Source of the DNA: a virus
IMG/VR virus record: IMGVR_UViG_3300045988_107973
Direction: 5' to 3' (one strand)
Length of the DNA: 64,000 nucleotides
A program made the translations under genes and the position numbers. Numbering within the stretch: position 1 is the stretch's first letter; every line of letters starts with the position of its first letter. Positions 13,937 to 25,863 of the stretch are shown here, piece by piece. Under the pieces are notes generated by a model. It had not been told where the DNA came from, did not search any database, and worked only from the letters and a program-made list of their open reading frames with translations.

Positions 13937-14713
13937 ATGCCGAGAAGGAAAACAGTAGAAGCACTGCAATTAACGCCGAAAGAAATAGCTCGGAAGTCGC
14001 CTACTTTTATGGAGCTTCCTGAGATGGTAAGCCGTGCTGGTGAGCCTACATACTATTATGATGTGGGAGATGCTGTAGAGATTGGTCATCTTAGCGGATG
14101 CAAGATTGATGAAGTCTGCGACGGTGGTTTATATTACGGTGTTTCTTACGATGATGGATATAGGTACGAAACGTGGTTTAACATTCGTAAAGCAGGTGTT
14201 GAGAAGAAATCTCAACTGACAGAGAATGAAGATATTAAGATTTCTTACTCAAACGTGACCATTGAATCCTTGCTCCACAGGTATTACTTTTTTGGCATCA
14301 ACTGCAATCCGAGTTATCAACGCGGATCTGTGTGGACGGATGATGACCGTGAACTGCTTTTTGAGACAATTTTTATGGGTGGTGAAATCGGTCGATTTGT
14401 TCTAAAAAACATTGACATGGACGAATGGCATGAAAATCAGAACTACCTTTATGAAATCATTGACGGTAAGCAGAGACTTCTGACACTTGCTGCGTTCTAC
14501 GAAGATCGGTTCCGTTATAAAGGATATCTGTACAGTGAACTCTCTAAGAAGGATAAGAGAACCTTTGATGAGACTGCAATTGCTATCGCGGATTTGCGGA
14601 ATCTTTCTAAGAAGGATACGTTGCGTGTGTTCTTGCTTCTGAATCGTGGTGGCAAGGTCGTTTCCAATGCTGTGCTTGACCATGCAAAAGAGCTTCTGAA
14701 CGAAATGGAGTGA
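13937..14713 (+). CDS. DUF262 (ParB/Srx-like, GmrSD N-domain-type) protein
   Basis: Product contains NPSYQRGSVW...LLFETIFMGGEIGRFVL...YEIIDGKQRLLTL, the DUF262 signature (DGQQR-type). Confidence 0.6.
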   Translation: MPRRKTVEALQLTPKEIARKSPTFMELPEMVSRAGEPTYYYDVGDAVEIGHLSGCKIDEVCDGGLYYGVSYDDGYRYETWFNIRKAGVEKKSQLTENEDIKISYSNVTIESLLHRYYFFGINCNPSYQRGSVWTDDDRELLFETIFMGGEIGRFVLKNIDMDEWHENQNYLYEIIDGKQRLLTLAAFYEDRFRYKGYLYSELSKKDKRTFDETAIAIADLRNLSKKDTLRVFLLLNRGGKVVSNAVLDHAKELLNEME

Positions 14714-20017: not shown

Positions 20018-20086
20018 AATAGACATTTTATCGTGATTTGGCAACAAATAAATGACGATAATACGTTAAATAAAGGGAGAAAAACG

Positions 20087-22297
20087 ATGAGAACTTTGCT
20101 TCTTTTCCGTGGAGCACCCGGATGCGGGAAGTCCACCTATATTAAAGAGCATGATCTGGAAAAGTATACGCTTAGTGCAGATACGATTCGCCTTATGTGT
20201 CAGGGTGGTCAGGAAACCCCGGCTGGCACAATGGAAATCTCTCCCCAGAACGATGATGTTGTCTGGGATATGCTCTTTAAGCTGTTGGAGGTTCGGATGT
20301 CTCACGGTGAATTTACCGTGATTGATGCAACGAATTCCAAGACGGTCGAAATGAATCGTTATAAGAATCTTGCAAAACAGTATCGTTATCGGATGTATGT
20401 TATTAACATGACGGACCTTCCGATCGAGGAATGCAAACGAAGAAACGCTCAGAGAGAATGGCTGAAGCGAGTTCCTGAAGCGGCTATTGATAAGATGTAC
20501 GCTCGGTTTGCTACTCAAAAAGTTCCTTCTGGCGTGACAGTTCTTCCTTCTACTACGGATGTGATGTCCGATTTGAACTACTGTCCGAATGACTTCAACC
20601 AGTGGAAGAAGATTCATGTCATCGGTGATGTTCATGGCTGTTATACTTGTTTAAGTGAATACCTTGGTGAGATGAAGGACGATGAACTTTATATCTTCGT
20701 TGGTGATTATCTCGATCGTGGCATTGAAAACGTTGAGGTATTCAAGTTCTTGTGTGATGTTGTAAATAACAACCGCAAGAATGTGATCCTTTTGGAAGGG
20801 AATCACGAGCGTTGGCTGAACAAGTGGGGGCATGATGAACCGGTTCAGAGTGAAGAGTTTGCAAACTACACTCGTCCGCAGCTCTTTAAAGCCGGTATTG
20901 ACAAGAACACTGCTCGTAAAATCTATTCCAGAGTTGGCCAATGTGCCTACTTTGAGTATGATGGGAAGCGGTACTTCGTGAGCCACGGTGGTTTGAGTTA
21001 TCTGCCTTATTTTCTTCCTTTTGTATCTGCTGACCAGATGATTAAAGGTGTAGGTCGCTATCCTGATATGCTAACCGTGGCTGAGTCTTGGGAAAAATCG
21101 ATGCCGGATAGCTACATTCAGATCTTCGGTCATCGAAATGTGCAGGATGTTCCTATTGATATGGGGCATCGGTGCTACAACCTCGAAGGAAAAATCGAGT
21201 TTGGTGGATATCTCCGTTGCGTGGAACTTGAACACGGTCAGTCAATCAAATGTGTAGAAACAAAGAACGATGTGTTCCGAAAAGAGGAGCCAAAGACTGA
21301 AACTGCCGTTGAAATGAAAACTGAGTTCGATAACGCAGAACTTGTCAGTAAGATGCGTCAAAGCAAATATGTGTTTGAGAAGCGATTCGGAGATATTTCT
21401 TCTTTCAACTTCTCTCGTGAAGCATTTTATAAGAAGCACTGGGATGAGGTTTCTACCAAAGCAAGGGGGCTGTTCATTAACACAAAGACGAATAAGATTG
21501 TAGCTCGAAGCTATGATAAGTTCTTTGCGGTCGATGAGCGGAATGAAACGAGAATTGGAAACCTACAGAACACTTTGAAGTTCCCGGTGACTGCATATCT
21601 GAAGGAAAACGGATTTCTTGGCATTGTCTCGTATGATGCAGAACAGGATGGTCTGTTCATTGCAAGTAAATCCACTCCTGAAGGGCCTTTTGCAGATATG
21701 TTCCGAAAGATTCTCATGGATACGACTTCCGATGAAGACCGTAAGAATCTGAAGGAAGTTGCAAAAGAGAATGGTTCAGTCATTTTTGAAGTGATTGATC
21801 CTGTAAATGACCCGCATATCATCGAATACATGACACCATATATTGTTTTGCTGGATATTGTTGCGAATGATATGAACTTCAGTGTGATGGATTACGATGA
21901 TCTGAAGCGTGTTGCTGAAAAGTGTCATTTGCAGATTAAGGAGAAGGTTAAGATCTTTGAGAGCTGGAGTGAATTCTATCCTTGGTATGAAGAAGTCATG
22001 AATGAGAATTATCTGTACCGTGGCATCGAGCATATTGAAGGCTTTGTTTTGAGAGATAACAACAATTTTATGTTTAAGCTGAAGCTTCCTTATTATAAGC
22101 ACTGGAAGTTCTTGCGTGGTGTTATGCAGAGCGTCCAGAAGCGTGGCTATTACGAAAATACCGCAAAGTTGTTTACTGCTGAGGATAACCTGTTCTATGG
22201 TTGGATGCGTGAGCAACGAGAGAAAGACCAGGAATCTTTCTGCAAGAAGGGTATTATTCAGTTACGGAATGAATTCTATGAGAATCGGCACGAATAA
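20087..22297 (+). CDS. Pnkp-like polynucleotide kinase-phosphatase with C-terminal ligase-like region (RNA repair enzyme)
   Basis: N-terminal P-loop LLFRGAPGCGKST (kinase). Central calcineurin-like phosphoesterase motifs GDVHGC, GDYLDRG, GNHE, GHR. About 330 further C-terminal residues contain a KENG candidate adenylyltransferase motif I. The domain order matches bacterial Pnkp. Confidence 0.6.
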   Translation: MRTLLLFRGAPGCGKSTYIKEHDLEKYTLSADTIRLMCQGGQETPAGTMEISPQNDDVVWDMLFKLLEVRMSHGEFTVIDATNSKTVEMNRYKNLAKQYRYRMYVINMTDLPIEECKRRNAQREWLKRVPEAAIDKMYARFATQKVPSGVTVLPSTTDVMSDLNYCPNDFNQWKKIHVIGDVHGCYTCLSEYLGEMKDDELYIFVGDYLDRGIENVEVFKFLCDVVNNNRKNVILLEGNHERWLNKWGHDEPVQSEEFANYTRPQLFKAGIDKNTARKIYSRVGQCAYFEYDGKRYFVSHGGLSYLPYFLPFVSADQMIKGVGRYPDMLTVAESWEKSMPDSYIQIFGHRNVQDVPIDMGHRCYNLEGKIEFGGYLRCVELEHGQSIKCVETKNDVFRKEEPKTETAVEMKTEFDNAELVSKMRQSKYVFEKRFGDISSFNFSREAFYKKHWDEVSTKARGLFINTKTNKIVARSYDKFFAVDERNETRIGNLQNTLKFPVTAYLKENGFLGIVSYDAEQDGLFIASKSTPEGPFADMFRKILMDTTSDEDRKNLKEVAKENGSVIFEVIDPVNDPHIIEYMTPYIVLLDIVANDMNFSVMDYDDLKRVAEKCHLQIKEKVKIFESWSEFYPWYEEVMNENYLYRGIEHIEGFVLRDNNNFMFKLKLPYYKHWKFLRGVMQSVQKRGYYENTAKLFTAEDNLFYGWMREQREKDQESFCKKGIIQLRNEFYENRHE

Positions 22298-22363: not shown

Positions 22364-22446
22364 GGGGATATGGCGGAATTGACAGACGCAAACGATTCAA
22401 ACTCGTTCGGGAAACCATGTGGGTTTAAATCCCACTATCCCTACCA
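22364..22446 (+). tRNA. tRNA-Leu (anticodon CAA), type II, CCA encoded
   Basis: Hand-folded. Acceptor GGGGATA/TATCCCT. D-arm TGGCGGAATTGACAGACGC is nearly identical to the E. coli tRNA-Leu D-arm. Anticodon stem AACGA/TCGTT with loop TTCAAAC. T-arm GTGGGTTTAAATCCCAC. 3' end ACCA. Confidence 0.55.
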
Positions 22447-22522
22447 GTTCATTTACAGATGAGCATGAGTTAGAATGGCAAATCGGAAAGACGGTTGACT
22501 CTTGGACAGACAGGGTTGATAT

Positions 22523-22610
22523 GCCGCAGTGATGGAGTGACATACATTTCCCGCTTAAACCGGGACGCCTGAAACATGGATCGTGGGTTTGAATCCCACC
22601 TGCGGCACCA
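22523..22610 (+). tRNA. tRNA-Leu (anticodon TAA), type II, CCA encoded
   Basis: Acceptor GCCGCAG/CTGCGGC. Anticodon stem TCCCG/CGGGA with loop CTTAAAC. 17-nt variable arm. T-arm GTGGGTTTGAATCCCAC. Confidence 0.55.
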
Positions 22611-22613
22611 TAT

Positions 22614-22687
22614 CCAGAATGTAGTGTAATGGCAGCACGCTGCGTTTGGGACGCAGAAGAGCGATTCGAATTCGACATTTTGGACCA
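22614..22687 (+). tRNA. tRNA-like element with a Pro(TGG)-type anticodon arm; T-arm non-canonical (possible pseudogene)
   Basis: Acceptor CCAGAAT/ATTTTGG + A + CCA pairs perfectly. Anticodon arm CTGCG-TTTGGGA-CGCAG matches E. coli tRNA-Pro. No 5-bp T-stem could be found around TTCGAAT. Confidence 0.25.
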
Positions 22688-22783
22688 GTAGAGTATTCCA
22701 TTTGCTTTTCATGAATACCTTCCTATTATTCTTGGCTCTCCAAAAAAACGGAGCAGTAGGACGCAGCAAGCCAAGTTACATAA

Positions 22784-22873
22784 TGAGGGTTCGCCAAGTG
22801 GTAAATGGCATCTGGCTTTGACCCAGACAGCGTGCTTTATAGCCGATCGTCGGTTCGATCCCGACACCCTCAA
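22784..22873 (+). tRNA. tRNA-Gln (anticodon TTG)-like with an abnormal 21-nt variable region
   Basis: U1-A72 acceptor TGAGGGT/ACCCTCA and D-arm TCGCCAAGTGGTAAATGGC resemble E. coli tRNA-Gln. Anticodon stem TCTGG/CCAGA with loop CTTTGAC. T-arm GTCGGTTCGATCCCGAC. The segment CAGCGTGCTTTATAGCCGATC is inserted at the variable position. No encoded CCA. Confidence 0.45.
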
Positions 22874-22878
22874 TTTAT

Positions 22879-22967
22879 GGACACGTGATGGAATCGCAGA
22901 CATGAAAGATTTAGGCTCTTTTGCCGTTAACAGCGGTGTGCCCGTTCAAATCGGGTCGTGTCCACCA
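22879..22967 (+). tRNA. tRNA-Leu (anticodon TAG), type II, CCA encoded
   Basis: Acceptor GGACACG/CGTGTCC. Anticodon stem AAAGA/TCTTT with loop TTTAGGC. Variable-arm hairpin CCG-TTAACAG-CGG. T-arm GCCCGTTCAAATCGGGT. 3' end ACCA. Confidence 0.6.
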
Positions 22968-23066
22968 TTATCAACTTATGGTTGCGTACCGTTTGTTGAT
23001 CTCCTTTACTATTATTCCCGGCTCGCCAGTGATGGTGCAGTAGTGCTTTGTAAGCTGGGTTTTCAT

Positions 23067-23141
23067 GCAGCGGTCGTACAACGGCTAGTACATCAGCCTT
23101 CCAAGCTGAGGATGAGGTTTCGACTACCTTTCGCTGCTCCA
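23067..23141 (+). tRNA. tRNA-Gly (anticodon TCC), CCA encoded
   Basis: Acceptor GCAGCGG/TCGCTGC. D-stem GTAC/GTAC. Anticodon arm TCAGC-CTTCCAA-GCTGA is identical to E. coli glyT. T-arm GAGGTTTCGACTACCTT. Confidence 0.65.
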
Positions 23142-23322
23142 ATCTTGTATGGGTAGGATCTTTAGCGGTCAGATCCGGCCGCGCCTGTGCAAGATACCAC
23201 CCCGAAAGGGGCTAACGAAATTTTCTATGTCAATTATTCTCGGCTCACTTAAAAGAGTGCAGTTGACCTTTGTAAGCCGAGTATCCCAGCCTAGTGATGC
23301 CAGTTGCTAGGTTGGTTCTTAT

Positions 23323-23398
23323 GCGACTGTAGTTCAATTGGTAGAGCGTCAGATTTCCAATCTGAATGTTGCGGGATCGTGCCCCGTCAGTCGCTCCA
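23323..23398 (+). tRNA. tRNA-Gly (TCC)-like second copy with a non-canonical T-loop (ATCGTGC)
   Basis: Perfect acceptor GCGACTG/CAGTCGC. D-arm TAGTTCAATTGGTAGAGC. Anticodon arm TCAGA-TTTCCAA-TCTGA. T-arm GCGGG-ATCGTGC-CCCGT lacks T54/A58. CCA encoded. Confidence 0.4.
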
Positions 23399-23529
23399 CA
23401 CGCAGCCCATGACGCTGCACCGGTTACTCAGAGCCGAAAGGAACCTATATGTTACGACATGGTTGCTAAGAGTGATCATATTGGAACGCGACGTAGCTTT
23501 GATAGTGGGAATTAAATTCTGAGGTATAC

Positions 23530-23598
23530 GGCTGGATAGCTTAATGGTAAAAGCGCTCGGAAACACCGAGAGATGAGGTTCGATTCCTCCGCTGGCAT
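23530..23598 (+). other. tRNA-like remnant (good D-arm and T-arm, no acceptor pairing, defective anticodon arm)
   Basis: TAGCTTAATGGTAAAAGC D-arm and GAGGTTCGATTCCTC T-arm. The anticodon region CTCGG-AAACA-CCGAG has a 5-nt loop. The ends are a direct repeat (GCTGG), not complementary. Confidence 0.2.
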
Positions 23599-23625
23599 CG
23601 CGCCGACGAAAGTCGGCGTTTGCAT

Positions 23626-23702
23626 GGGATAGTAGCTCAGTTGGTCAGAGCTGGCGGCTCATAACCGCTTGGTCGCGAGTTCAAATCTTGCCTGTCCCAC
23701 CA
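23626..23702 (+). tRNA. tRNA-Met (anticodon CAT; elongator or Ile-lysidine type), CCA encoded
   Basis: Acceptor GGGATAG/CTGTCCC. D-arm TAGCTCAGTTGGTCAGAGC. Anticodon stem GGCGG/CCGCT with loop CTCATAA. T-arm GCGAGTTCAAATCTTGC. Confidence 0.6.
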
Positions 23703-23826: not shown

Positions 23827-23844
23827 GAAAAGGAGGAATGAAAC

Positions 23845-25305
23845 CTGAAGCATTACGGAGATATCACACAACTTCATGGATGGCAGATTGAACCGGTTTC
23901 CTGTATCACAGGAGGCAGTCCATGCCAAGATTTGAGTCAGGCCGGTAAACGTGAAGGTTTGACTGGTGAACGCTCTGGATTGTTCCTTGAAATGATTCGT
24001 GTGATTACAGAAATGAGGGAGGCCACCAATGGGGAATGTCCAAAATTCGCAATCTGGGAAAATGTCAGAGGAGCTTTTAGCTCAAGCAAAGGTGAAGACT
24101 TCAGATGTGTGTTGGAAAGATTTGCACGCATTGTCGAGCCAGACGTTTCAATTCCTCGACCTTCAGGAAAGAACGGAAAGTGGGCAAAATCTGGAGCGAT
24201 TTCCGGTAATGGATGGTCTCTTGCATGGAGATTGTTCGACGCTAAATACTGGGGAGTCGCCCAGCGCCGCCAAAGAATCGCGCTTGTCATGGATTTTGGA
24301 GGACAACGTGCCTCAGAAATTCTATTTGAGCGCACGAGCATGTCAGGGGATTCTTGTGAGAGCATCCCGGCGTGGAAAACCTTTGCCCGAACTCCTGAAG
24401 CAAGCGTTGCTGGATATGATCGAATGGTGGAATCCAGGAACTCTGTCACAGGTGGTGCAGAAAGTGAAGGAACAAGAAGGTCTGGAAGAGAAGGAATTGG
24501 ACGAGTATTGGAGTCAAACCATCGAGAGACTTCGACTCGATGCACAGAACCTACAGCCTACACTCTAAAAATCCGCTCTGGATGTGAAGGTGGCGGTAAA
24601 GGCGCTCTGGTTCAAACTGAATTGAGCGCAACGATTTCTACGTTGCAAGACCAGACGCTAATTTGCTTGGTAGAAAATCCCTCCTTACATAATTTAAAAC
24701 AAAAGATCTCGCCGGTAGTATTTGAGAGTCACAGCCAGGACGCTCGATACACTCAGCAGGGTGATACAAGTCCGACTTGTACTGCTCAGTGGGGAACAGG
24801 CGGTAATAATATGCCGCTGGTCGTTGAAAAGAAAGCCTTTGCAATGCAGCGCATTGGTGAGTACAAGGAAAGCGAACACGCCAGCACGATGAAATCTCGT
24901 GATTATAAGGACGCTACTGATCTGATTGCAGAGAAGGAAACGAAGAATCTACGATGGATTGTTCGCCGCTTGACTCCTTTGGAGGATGAACGGTTACAGG
25001 GTTTCCATGACGGATGGACTGATATCGGTGATTGGATCGATGAGAATGGGAAGAAGCACAAGACTTCTGACGCAGCTCGTTACAAGGCGCTCGGCAATTC
25101 GATTGCTTTGCCTCAGTGGTATTGGATTTGCCAGAAGATGAAACCGTATATTGGTGAAAATCCCACGCTTGGCAGTCTTTTCGATGGAATTGGTGGCTTT
25201 CCGCTTGTCTTTGAAAGTACGTATGGTGATGGTACTGCTATCTGGGCGAGCGAAGTGGATAGTTTTTGCATCGCAGTTACAAAGAAAAGATTCCCAGAAA
25301 ATTAA
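23845..25305 (+). CDS. circularly permuted DNA (cytosine-5)-methyltransferase (motif order IV-VI-VIII-TRD-X-I-II/III)
   Basis: In the frame opening after TGA 23839-41: GDITQLHGW...GGSPCQDLSQAGKREG (IV), FAIWENVRGAF (VI), QRRQRIALV (VIII), ALGNSIALP (X). At the C-terminus: SLFDGIGGF (I) and ASEVDSFCIAVTKKRFPEN (II/III). There is no in-frame ATG. CTG 23845 sits 8 nt after AAGGAGG. ATG 23838 is in the -1 frame (17-aa ORF). Confidence 0.6.
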   Translation: MKHYGDITQLHGWQIEPVSCITGGSPCQDLSQAGKREGLTGERSGLFLEMIRVITEMREATNGECPKFAIWENVRGAFSSSKGEDFRCVLERFARIVEPDVSIPRPSGKNGKWAKSGAISGNGWSLAWRLFDAKYWGVAQRRQRIALVMDFGGQRASEILFERTSMSGDSCESIPAWKTFARTPEASVAGYDRMVESRNSVTGGAESEGTRRSGREGIGRVLESNHRETSTRCTEPTAYTLKIRSGCEGGGKGALVQTELSATISTLQDQTLICLVENPSLHNLKQKISPVVFESHSQDARYTQQGDTSPTCTAQWGTGGNNMPLVVEKKAFAMQRIGEYKESEHASTMKSRDYKDATDLIAEKETKNLRWIVRRLTPLEDERLQGFHDGWTDIGDWIDENGKKHKTSDAARYKALGNSIALPQWYWICQKMKPYIGENPTLGSLFDGIGGFPLVFESTYGDGTAIWASEVDSFCIAVTKKRFPEN

Positions 25306-25314
25306 AAGGAGATA

Positions 25315-25863
25315 TTGATGCCAGAAAACAAAGGATATCTTACATCTGACCGATCTACGGCAGGCGACGAGCGATACACTCCGGTTTACGCAGTTGTTCC
25401 ATTGCTTGAATTTGCCCCCCCCCCATCGAGTAAAGCAGTGATTTGGTGTCCGTTTGATAAAGAATGGTCTGCTTTTGTGCAGGTGTTTAGAAATGCTGGG
25501 TACAAAGTAGAGTGTAGCCATATCGATAATGGGCAAGATTTCTTTACATATGAACCAGAACGTTGGGATGTTATGATTTCGAATCCTCCTTTTAGTAAGA
25601 AGGATGATGTGCTGCGTAGAGCATATGAACTTGAAAAACCGTTTGCTCTACTGCTTCCTGCAAATAGTATTCAGGGGAAAACACGATTTGACATTTTTAA
25701 AAATGATGTACAGATGTTGTGTTTTGATTCTCGAATCGGATTTATGGACCCTGAACACACAGACAGTCCTGTCGAGGGAGTGTCGTTTGGAAGTGCATAC
25801 TTCTGTAGAAATTTTCTTCCAAGTAAGTTAGAACTGCGGAAGCTTGATAAGAAAATCTCATAA
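25315..25863 (+). CDS. putative DNA N6-adenine methyltransferase (NPPF motif)
   Basis: Product contains DVMISNPPFS (motif IV, (D/N)PP(F/Y) type) and an N-terminal DERYTPVYAV phage-MTase-like segment. It lies 10 nt after the C5-MTase stop. Confidence 0.5.
   Translation: MMPENKGYLTSDRSTAGDERYTPVYAVVPLLEFAPPPSSKAVIWCPFDKEWSAFVQVFRNAGYKVECSHIDNGQDFFTYEPERWDVMISNPPFSKKDDVLRRAYELEKPFALLLPANSIQGKTRFDIFKNDVQMLCFDSRIGFMDPEHTDSPVEGVSFGSAYFCRNFLPSKLELRKLDKKIS

Follow-up and report, generated by a model that had tools for sequence, protein, structure and literature searches.

Circular permutation occurs naturally among C5-cytosine DNA methyltransferases (C5-methylases); described examples are M.BssHII, M.Alw26I, M2.Eco31I, M.Esp3I, and M2.BsaI, together with 22 REBASE entries (Slaska-Kiss et al., 2018, PMC5944983). 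Ten topologies were built in M.MpeI and M.SssI in the same work. Type B, whose new N-terminus falls between motifs II and III, clearly outperformed the other topologies, with activity comparable to the wild type, and no natural Type B example was found in REBASE (PMC5944983). Here we describe a C5-methylase gene at positions 23845-25305 (+ strand) of a 64,000-nucleotide stretch of viral DNA (IMG/VR virus record IMGVR_UViG_3300045988_107973), called the window below. We read it, with a probability of roughly 0.75, as a working orphan C5-methyltransferase of a ~130-kb gut phage that probably infects a Firmicute. It is a Type B permutant, and it is predicted to start at CTG and to carry an embedded second gene in the +1 frame. 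A literature search with partial coverage yielded neither a more recent account of a natural Type B enzyme nor one of the embedded open reading frame (ORF).

The window enzyme shares with the engineered Type B constructs (PMC5944983) an N-terminus between motifs II and III and the placing of motifs I-II behind motif X. Those constructs are laboratory-made and CG-specific, whereas the window enzyme belongs to a natural, widespread phage lineage and to another subfamily. The five natural permutants named above are of Type H. They resemble the window enzyme in being permuted C5-methylases with an origin by duplication, fusion, and trimming, but their N-terminus lies in the variable region and their motifs IX-X come before I-VIII. 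In the window enzyme the break falls between II and III and only motifs I-II have moved.

Split C5-methylases of the M.AquI type consist of an α chain with motifs I-VIII and a β chain with the distal variable region and motifs IX-X. Some relatives of the window gene ("type 2", locus L096) resemble this α/β split at the same boundary between motif VIII and the target-recognition domain (TRD). The window gene, in contrast, is one continuous ORF, and the type-2 overlap of ~130 codons is not a simple junction. The closest precedent for the embedded ORF, compared by description only, is M.EcoHK31I, in which a second polypeptide lies wholly inside the C5-methylase gene in another frame. Its β chain is said to have 176 amino acids (aa), against 179 aa for the embedded ORF. 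This chain is encoded entirely in another frame inside α (Lee, Kam & Shaw, 1995, via PMC2836561 and PMC3404938). Internal initiation produces it, its first 42 residues are dispensable, and it contributes motif IX (PMC2836561; PMC3404938). The α chain of M.EcoHK31I lacks motif IX and both chains are required, whereas the main ORF of the window has all ten motifs, including RRLTPLEDERLQGF; the window gene does contain a second ORF, but not a small chain that supplies motif IX. Out-of-frame HNH insertions (the "ShiLan domain") have been described in actinophage methylase genes (PMC11855218). There, too, an ORF is hidden in a second frame of a phage methylase gene whose own frame remains open throughout. 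Those insertions are mobile homing-endonuclease elements with a patchy distribution, whereas the embedded ORF involves no insertion and no HNH domain and is conserved throughout the subfamily.

Circular permutation and start of the methylase gene

The methylase frame is open from 23842, directly behind a TGA at 23839-41, to the stop codon TAA at 25303-05, and positions 23845-25305 form an intact coding sequence of 486 aa plus stop. The protein matches Pfam PF00145 in three stretches with 115.5 bits (E=4.5e-33), above the curated cut-off of 22, and is a member of that family. Motifs I (FxGxGG), II (acidic), III (D-I), IV (P-C), VI (E-N-V), VIII (Q-R-R), IX, and X (G-N) are all in one frame. The features of the gene, all on the + strand, are as follows.

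23845-25305 (+): circularly permuted C5-cytosine DNA methyltransferase coding sequence, broken between motifs II and III (PF00145 and permutation mapping)
23857-23865 (+): motif III (G-D-I; HYGDI), aligned to M.HhaI 57-61, PEGDI
23920-23928 (+): motif IV, catalytic Pro-Cys-Gln, aligned to M.HhaI GFPCQ
24058-24066 (+): motif VI (E-N-V), from sequence reading and M.HhaI alignment
24262-24276 (+): motif VIII (QRRQR), dual-coding, with a ratio of nonsynonymous to synonymous change (dN/dS) of 0.19 in the alternative (+1) frame and 0.11 in the methylase frame, pointing to constraint in both
24331-24555 (+): inter-domain linker of the methylase, open but free to vary (dN/dS and inverted codon-phase entropy)
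24964-25005 (+): motif IX (RRLTPLEDERLQGF), between TRD and motif X, matching the motif IX region of normal-order homologues
25078-25113 (+): motif X (RYKALGNSIALP), aligned to M.HhaI 290-313
25138-25173 (+): permutation joint, a relic initiator Met and N-terminal leader (MKPYIGENPTLG) linking motif X to motif I (BLASTP against the Javan191 methylase)
25174-25260 (+): motif I (SLFDGIGGF) and motif II (..WASEVD..), C-terminal (Pfam positions 4-43, M.HhaI 16-54, and dN/dS)

The motif order of the protein is III-IV-VI-VIII-TRD-IX-X-I-II. Its N-terminus corresponds to PF00145 positions 46-131 and its C-terminal 55 aa to positions 4-43. When these last 55 aa were moved to the front, the resulting artificial protein matched PF00145 positions 4-131 in one continuous stretch, and the score rose from 115.5 to 129 bits. 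Comparison with M.HhaI by phmmer paired aa 444-484 with HhaI 16-54 (motifs I-II), aa 3-89 with HhaI 57-136 (motifs III-VI), and aa 403-427 with HhaI 290-313 (motif X). BLASTP against the normal-order methylase of Streptococcus phage Javan191 gave two segments, window residues 1-439 against 49-522 and 441-485 against 6-48, with no loss or duplication at the permutation. The break falls exactly between motifs II and III (M.HhaI residues 54/57), and the termini with nothing lost or duplicated agree with the Type B topology (PMC5944983). They do not agree with that of M.BssHII, as the N-terminus corresponds to M.HhaI 57 in motif III and motifs IX-X come after motif VIII and the TRD. The joint is kept in all permuted relatives. 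Together these alignments show that the window methylase is a true circular permutant. A sequence-only reading of the window had proposed a permuted order with motif X followed by I and II/III at the C-terminus. The profile and M.HhaI alignments confirm the permuted order and the presence of motifs I-III, but they place motif III (HYGDI) at the N-terminus and add motif IX, which had been overlooked. That reading had also called the permutation one known for only a few methylases; natural permutants do exist, but a break between II and III is a different topology from theirs.

The new start codon is the Val/Met codon of an ancestral "..P(D/E)VKH(L/Y)GD.." stretch. The old Met and leader at the joint, together with a start on this ancestral codon, fit the duplication-fusion-trimming model, and the tandem duplication trimmed at both ends that had been suggested from the sequence holds up on this evidence. 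An ancestral gene of normal order would have undergone tandem duplication, in-frame fusion, and then trimming. The resulting polypeptide would begin at motif III on the internal Val/Met of "..VKHLGD.." and end past motif II. The piece β1-αA-β2 (motifs I-II) that binds S-adenosylmethionine would be supplied from the C-terminus, with the old leader as its tether to motif X. Because C5-methylases have their N- and C-termini near each other, the fold should be able to close. An 8-bp sequence (ATGAAACC) common to 23838 and 25138 was considered as a mark left by recombination, but was treated as coincidence because the first site reads ATGAAAAC in most relatives.

Three features bear on how translation of the gene begins.

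23830-23836 (+): Shine-Dalgarno sequence AAGGAGG of the methylase, read from the sequence, its distance to the start kept in all ~130-kb phage relatives
23838-23891 (+): out-of-frame mini-ORF opened by an ATG (17 codons, then TGA), probably not used to reach the methylase (variable bases from this ATG to the CTG)
23845-23847 (+): CTG initiation codon of the methylase, aligned with ATG and GTG starts of relatives

No in-frame ATG, GTG, or TTG occurs upstream of TTG 23932, where the program-made ORF list put the start of the methylase and which is itself 3' of the catalytic Pro-Cys. The TGA, the open frame, the AAGGAGG 8 nt 5' of CTG 23845, and the missing in-frame ATG were all read correctly from the sequence beforehand. 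So was the sole upstream ATG (23838), which is out of frame and opens the 17-codon ORF, except that it lies 1 nt and not 2 nt past the Shine-Dalgarno sequence. When the 5' ends of all loci were aligned, the start position was ATG in Toutatis-like phages, including L072-L083 (ATG AAA CAC TTG GGC GAC ATC). It was GTG in clade B, a sister clade of large phages (AAGGAGGtggtttgGTG AAA CAT TAT GGA), and CTG in ~45 loci, among them the window and two divergent loci, L046 and L064 (AAGGAGGaatgaaaaCTG AAG CAT TAC GGA). The distance from the Shine-Dalgarno sequence is equal in CTG, GTG, and ATG loci. Because the CTG occupies the aligned position of the relatives' ATG and GTG, the missing ATG is explained and no frameshift is needed; the best reading is that translation of the methylase starts at CTG 23845. 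Three options had been left by the sequence-only reading, and among these the non-canonical start stands, the +1 frameshift is superfluous, and a broken gene is contradicted by purifying selection. The CTG would be positioned by the AAGGAGG 8 nt upstream. CTG starts give weak translation, and low-level synthesis would be expected. We infer both enzymatic activity and use of the CTG in vivo from the sequence comparisons. The enzyme is presumed to methylate the phage DNA, which would let it escape host restriction. Public gene calls for the permuted family start at MSQAGK.. (460-aa "MSQAGK..." proteins) or MSCITGG.., behind the catalytic Cys, so the annotations of this family are truncated or wrong.

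The permuted gene is widespread. An IMG/VR scan recovered 80 loci with 66-99% identity, all covering query residues 1-485; most are ~130-kb phage genomes, and a second group consists of ~57-60-kb phages akin to Faecalibacterium phage Toutatis. In cultured Toutatis the "DNA methyltransferase" genes gp14 and gp15 show the same permuted order. A protein search added hundreds of 87-99% identical proteins on metagenome contigs of up to ~430 kb, all with C-terminal motifs I-II. Of the 45 CTG-start loci, made up of clade A and the divergent L046 and L064, 44 have an intact methylase ORF (486-489 codons), as do all 12 Toutatis-like loci. Selection was estimated from 50 non-redundant sequences with an OLGenie-like site-class test that separates two overlapping frames. 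Methylase-frame dN/dS was 0.11-0.30 in every part except the linker, and 0.19 at 24901-25299, where motifs IX, X, I, and II lie. The low values across all motifs indicate that the methylase gene is under purifying selection.

Frame disruptions and insertions were seen in some relatives. Within clade A, only L059 has its methylase frame cut short by a stop, 44 codons past the CTG; its embedded +1 ORF is intact with 179 codons. Clade B (L045-L073, 21 loci) has a 4-nt TTAG insertion ~75 nt past the GTG and inside the catalytic Cys codon (CCT TGT TAG C CAA GAC), which places TAG directly 3' of Pro-Cys and shifts the frame. Past the insertion its methylase frame is under strong purifying selection (dN/dS 0.07-0.31 within the clade), and in IEPVSCITGGSPC a by-eye reading of the aligned sequences found nine nucleotide differences between clades B and A, all synonymous. 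Clade B is either a candidate for programmed +1 frameshifting at UGU_UAG_C or a conserved, catalytically dead derivative. In the Toutatis reference (L001, FP_Toutatis, NC_047915) a G9 run at ~2385-2393 shifts the frame between motifs VI and VIII. As a result the reference annotates the methylase as two genes, gp14 and gp15, and gp14 runs on in the frame of the embedded ORF; the run is either a sequencing error or phase variation. In L038-L040 (protein P0107, 633-665 aa) an in-frame insertion of ~175 aa with HNH_3 (PF13392) splits motif IX (RLQGFP / ... / GWTDIGEW) and resembles an intein or a homing-endonuclease insertion; the HNH insertions of actinophage methylases (PMC11855218), which are out of frame, may be compared with it.

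The +1 frame inside the methylase gene

A second ORF, which the sequence-only reading had overlooked, lies wholly inside the methylase coding sequence. Its features are the following.

24017-24022 (+): internal Shine-Dalgarno sequence GGGAGG, formed by the methylase codons Met-Arg(AGG)-Glu, 6 nt 5' of ATG 24029
24029-24568 (+): embedded overlapping +1 ORF of 179 codons plus TAA (open run and conserved ATG)
24284-24430 (+): conserved core of the embedded protein (LSWILEDNVPQKFYLSARACQGILVRASRRGKPLPELLKQALLDMIEWW), from tblastn and alternative-frame dN/dS

The start signals are conserved. The ATG is present in ~75 IMG/VR loci in which the ORF was located, and it is kept while the methylase residue varies between N, D, and H (AAT/GAT/CAT followed by G). 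Among the Arg codons of 11 window ORFs only 4% are AGG, but the internal Shine-Dalgarno sequence contains this codon in the window and in nearly all relatives. The two exceptions, L093 with AGA-GGA-G (giving AGGAG) and L064 with ATG-ATG-GAG-G (Met for Arg, giving GGAGG), still form purine runs of the Shine-Dalgarno kind. Proteobacterial versions have GGAG-N7-10-ATG built from "..VE..(N/D)A..".

In the window gene the open run of the +1 frame spans 24017-24568 and measures 183 codons, against 57 for the next-longest run (P~10^-4.3). In 13 diverse single-frame genes the +1 run over this region was 130-194 codons, against 44-118 for the longest run elsewhere in the same genes, with per-gene probabilities of 10^-2.1 to 10^-5.6. 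None of the 13 has a stop in the methylase frame across the linker. The end of the embedded ORF coincides exactly with the start of the conserved TRD, where CTA AAA reads as TAA in the +1 frame.

Codon-phase analysis found variation at methylase position 3 everywhere except at 24325-24445. There it falls on methylase position 1, the wobble position of the +1 frame, and position 3 is nearly invariant. Selection followed the same pattern (brackets give 95% confidence intervals). Both frames are constrained at 24199-24324, with dN/dS 0.19 [0.11-0.32] in the alternative frame and 0.11 in the methylase frame. At 24325-24447 the alternative frame gave 0.32 [0.18-0.51] and the methylase frame 1.90 [1.10-5.68], and at 24448-24567 the methylase frame gave 1.23. 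In the GTG clade (clade B) the alternative-frame value of the core was 0.11. Two control regions gave 0.95 and 1.03. These values indicate that in the core (24284-24430) purifying selection acts on the +1 frame and not on the methylase frame. The alternative frame shows purifying selection beyond the main-frame constraint, as an overlapping gene should, by a method that is somewhat biased.

The N-terminal ~80 residues of the embedded protein are a forced reading of methylase motifs VI-VIII (GKTSPE is the +1 reading of WENVPG). In the AlphaFold2 model, which had a predicted local distance difference test score (pLDDT) of 59 overall, they are disordered. The core is predicted to have helices at aa 85-91, 102-115, and 121-134 and a long C-terminal helix, with pLDDT 70-87; it overlies the inter-domain linker of the methylase (24331-24555). 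ALLDMIEWWNPGTLSQVVQK and FYLSAR are peptides of this ORF. An open but unconstrained linker beneath a conserved core is the usual anatomy of an overprinted gene. An antisense ORF of 202 codons (23937-24545, - strand) also overlaps the dual-coding stretch and may simply result from the constrained sequence.

A tblastn search with LSWILEDNVPQKFYLSARACQGILVRASRRGKPLPELLKQALLDMIEWW matched 132 phage records, and in the loci checked the matching peptide was always in the +1 frame of the annotated methylase coding sequence. It is also found in five distant methylases of normal order, namely P1 dmt, Vibrio CP-T1 gp12, Streptococcus Javan191, Akkermansia Chantilly, and Pseudomonas D14E, where the +1 frame is open for 135-194 codons. 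In loci from bacterial metagenome-assembled genomes the alternative motif was always in the motif VIII frame + 1. A profile of the embedded protein found 4234 cluster representatives (E<=1e-3) among 1.84 billion proteins, named, where they have a name, "hypothetical" or "uncharacterised". Among the top 150 representatives, 88 are the small ORF alone, ~35 have the alternative core in frame with TRD-IX-X(-I-II), and a few run from motif VI into the alternative reading (P0271, P0346). Gene callers sometimes call the embedded ORF itself, as in P0121 (98% identity).

In their DNA, most loci follow the window in having an unbroken methylase frame together with the embedded ORF. In the type-2 locus L096 the C-terminal half is in the alternative frame, and several loci carry more than one frameshift (L084, L092, L094, L101, and the Toutatis reference, there at the G9 run). 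Since the embedded ORF ends at the start of the TRD, a one-base insertion or deletion (indel) in the linker would create such fused forms, some of which may be functional α/β splits like M.AquI. Two apparent fusions were examined as designed arrangements; the first was rejected, and the second is no evidence for such a design. The join of the N-terminal half to the alternative reading in Toutatis gp14 goes back to the G9 homopolymer, and 12 Toutatis-like contigs are in frame. P0166, which has the alternative core in frame with the TRD, comes from a locus (L084) with several frame breaks (A-run indel). In L088 (Mycobacterium phage Schatzie, cluster J; 821-2705) an element that encodes an HNH domain breaks up the methylase after motif VIII, and the record states "unable to determine intron boundaries". 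Further downstream, the methylase segment has the alternative core (LSSILEPPGEHLRKYFLSAKACQGILRRTAKRGRKLP) in its +1 frame, and the upstream part of the embedded ORF is not open.

Only the C-terminal end of the PHROG 16143 profile ("DNA methyltransferase") aligned with the embedded protein (E=3e-4 in the window, 0.11 in Vibrio CP-T1), which has no similarity to PF00145 or to the methylase profile. A Foldseek search of the model of the embedded protein against the PDB gave no match (best E=0.86). A likeness of the core (YLSARACQGIL) to motif IX (RLTPxECxRLQGF) was dropped, as hhalign gave it a probability of 0.14%. We infer translation of the ORF from its start signals and open frame. The same mRNA would carry a second cistron in the +1 frame (24029-24568), read from the internal GGGAGG-N6-ATG, with the N-terminal ~80 residues as a disordered "passenger" of motifs VI-VIII and the helical core over the linker. 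The small protein may act with the methylase. Because of the obligate co-encoding, the M.EcoHK31I precedent, and the fused forms, our best guess is that it serves as an accessory subunit or regulator of the enzyme; a partner in anti-restriction is an equally open alternative.

Weighing other explanations

It is very improbable that the window gene is a decaying pseudogene, whose ATG was lost and whose motifs were misplaced in a rearrangement that killed it. No in-frame ATG, GTG, or TTG precedes the catalytic Cys, and the disrupted frames of L059, clade B, and the Toutatis reference would suit such decay, but purifying selection covers every motif, including the relocated I-II. The high share of intact ORFs in CTG-start and Toutatis-like loci, the conserved Shine-Dalgarno sequence and start position with ATG or GTG in relatives, and the activity of the same topology when engineered (PMC5944983) also argue for a functional gene. 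We give as little credit to a start at ATG 23838 with a programmed +1 frameshift in the first few codons. The out-of-frame ATG is conserved in the CTG clade, and the sister clade may use +1 recoding at UGU_UAG_C in motif IV. That ATG is, however, too close to the Shine-Dalgarno sequence, and no shift is required in those relatives whose codon at the CTG position is ATG or GTG. Between ATG 23838 and CTG 23845 the bases vary (aaaa, aaac, aact, aaga, gaaa, ggaa), with no conserved slippery site; the conserved slippery codon with a stop or rare codon that marks a prfB-like programmed +1 frameshift is absent from this interval. A functional methylase started at CTG 23845 remains the reading we prefer.

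For the +1 segment, it is unlikely that it forms part of the methylase product, for instance through a +1 shift that yields a fusion of the N-terminal half with the alternative core. The ~35 representatives with the core in frame with the TRD, L096, and the continuation from motif VI into the alternative reading in P0271, P0346, and Toutatis gp14 favour it. Against it, the alternative "LS.ILE" overlaps the motif VIII strand and one chain cannot hold both, and the unconstrained linker is open in 13 of 13 diverse genes in the methylase frame; on these two points we prefer two separate products to decoding by a frameshift. A shared slippery site was not seen at this segment, the conserved ATG and Shine-Dalgarno sequence would be needless for a frameshift, and the switch points differ and lie at homopolymers (Toutatis poly-G9, the A-run of L084) in an indel-like pattern. 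It is quite unlikely, in turn, that the conservation of the alternative frame is a by-product of codon bias or of constraint on the nucleotides themselves, through RNA structure or a DNA site, with no second protein. Part of the alternative sequence is indeed forced by methylase motifs, as with GKTSPE above and with STLNISEWPNDA, the +1 reading of LDAQYFGVAQRR, and one control region gave a spuriously low value. Nevertheless, variation in the core peaks at the alternative-frame wobble position with methylase-frame dN/dS above 1, the ORF is open for 130-194 codons, and the amino-acid sequence is conserved across phages of Actinobacteria, Firmicutes, and Proteobacteria despite very different GC content and codon usage.

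Some points weigh against the interpretation given here. CTG is a poor initiator. Motif IX has Asp where most relatives have Cys, and GFHD in place of GFPD. The AlphaFold2 model of the methylase (24 close homologues, a shallow alignment) reached pLDDT 28.6 and supports no structural claim. Frame variants occur among relatives (Toutatis poly-G9, type-2 L096, and the broken L084, L092, L094, and L101), so some alternative-frame ORFs in the databases are indel products. A third control region, 24568-24900, gave an alternative-frame dN/dS of 0.47; the statistic alone is biased, and the case for the embedded gene is therefore not rested on it alone. The embedded protein has no convincing match in Pfam, NCBIfam, PADLOC, or PDB sequences and belongs to no known family, which makes its function a guess.

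Neighbouring genes and wider meaning

The methylase lies among genes for replication and repair, namely a kinase/phosphatase/RNA-ligase fusion, an SSB-like protein, a RecA-like ATPase, and RecJ, and thus sits in a DNA-metabolism module of a large phage. The fusion (20033-22297, +; 754 aa) combines an AAA_33 kinase, a metallophosphatase, and a T4-type RNA ligase 1 domain and is tRNA-repair-like. Directly 3' of it and just 5' of the methylase are eight tRNA genes (22364-23702, +; Leu x3, Pro, Gln, Gly x2, and Met). Megablast of the methylase region against GenBank phages gave a tRNA match only and no close relative at the DNA level, and a promoter scan found none upstream of the methylase gene.

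The next gene (25318-25863, +) encodes a protein like N6-adenine methylases, with an NPPF motif and weak EcoRI_methylase and Dam Pfam matches. A C10 tract (25416-25425) near its 5' end is in frame. In related loci that have this gene the tract is C6 in some (premature stop, EFAPRRVKQ*) and C7 in others (in frame), about half and half of 8-9 loci, a split that is only rough because two counts differ in the loci captured. It looks like a homopolymer on/off (phase-variable) switch in a phage methylase. An ORF at 13937-14713 (+) matches Pfam GmrSD_N (E=1.7e-15). This domain is the N-terminal one of a type IV restriction endonuclease, and its presence is unusual for a phage that apparently methylates its own DNA.

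Taken across phages, we consider the odds somewhat better than even that C5-methyltransferase genes of phages and mobile elements spanning phyla, P1 dmt included, hide a separately translated +1 gene between motif VI and the TRD. Its ~45-aa helical core (LSxILE..P.KYYLSAKACxGILRRAxKRGKxLPxxLxxAL) would be an obligatory partner, whether as accessory subunit, regulator, or counter to methyl-directed restriction, and in the window it would coexist with the first natural Type B permuted C5-methylase.

The conserved CTG start is a rare case in which gene callers cut a protein behind its catalytic cysteine. The break between motifs II and III is used in nature, by an abundant human-gut phage lineage and by cultured Faecalibacterium phages. 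A natural Type B enzyme offers a scaffold for protein engineers and settles the 2018 remark that this topology is seemingly not used in nature. The permuted enzyme is a new natural variant, and the embedded, widely conserved +1 gene is the more surprising result. If translated, it is a conserved hidden gene in many annotated methylase genes, including that of phage P1, and would enlarge the biology of phage DNA methylation and anti-restriction by a partner protein.

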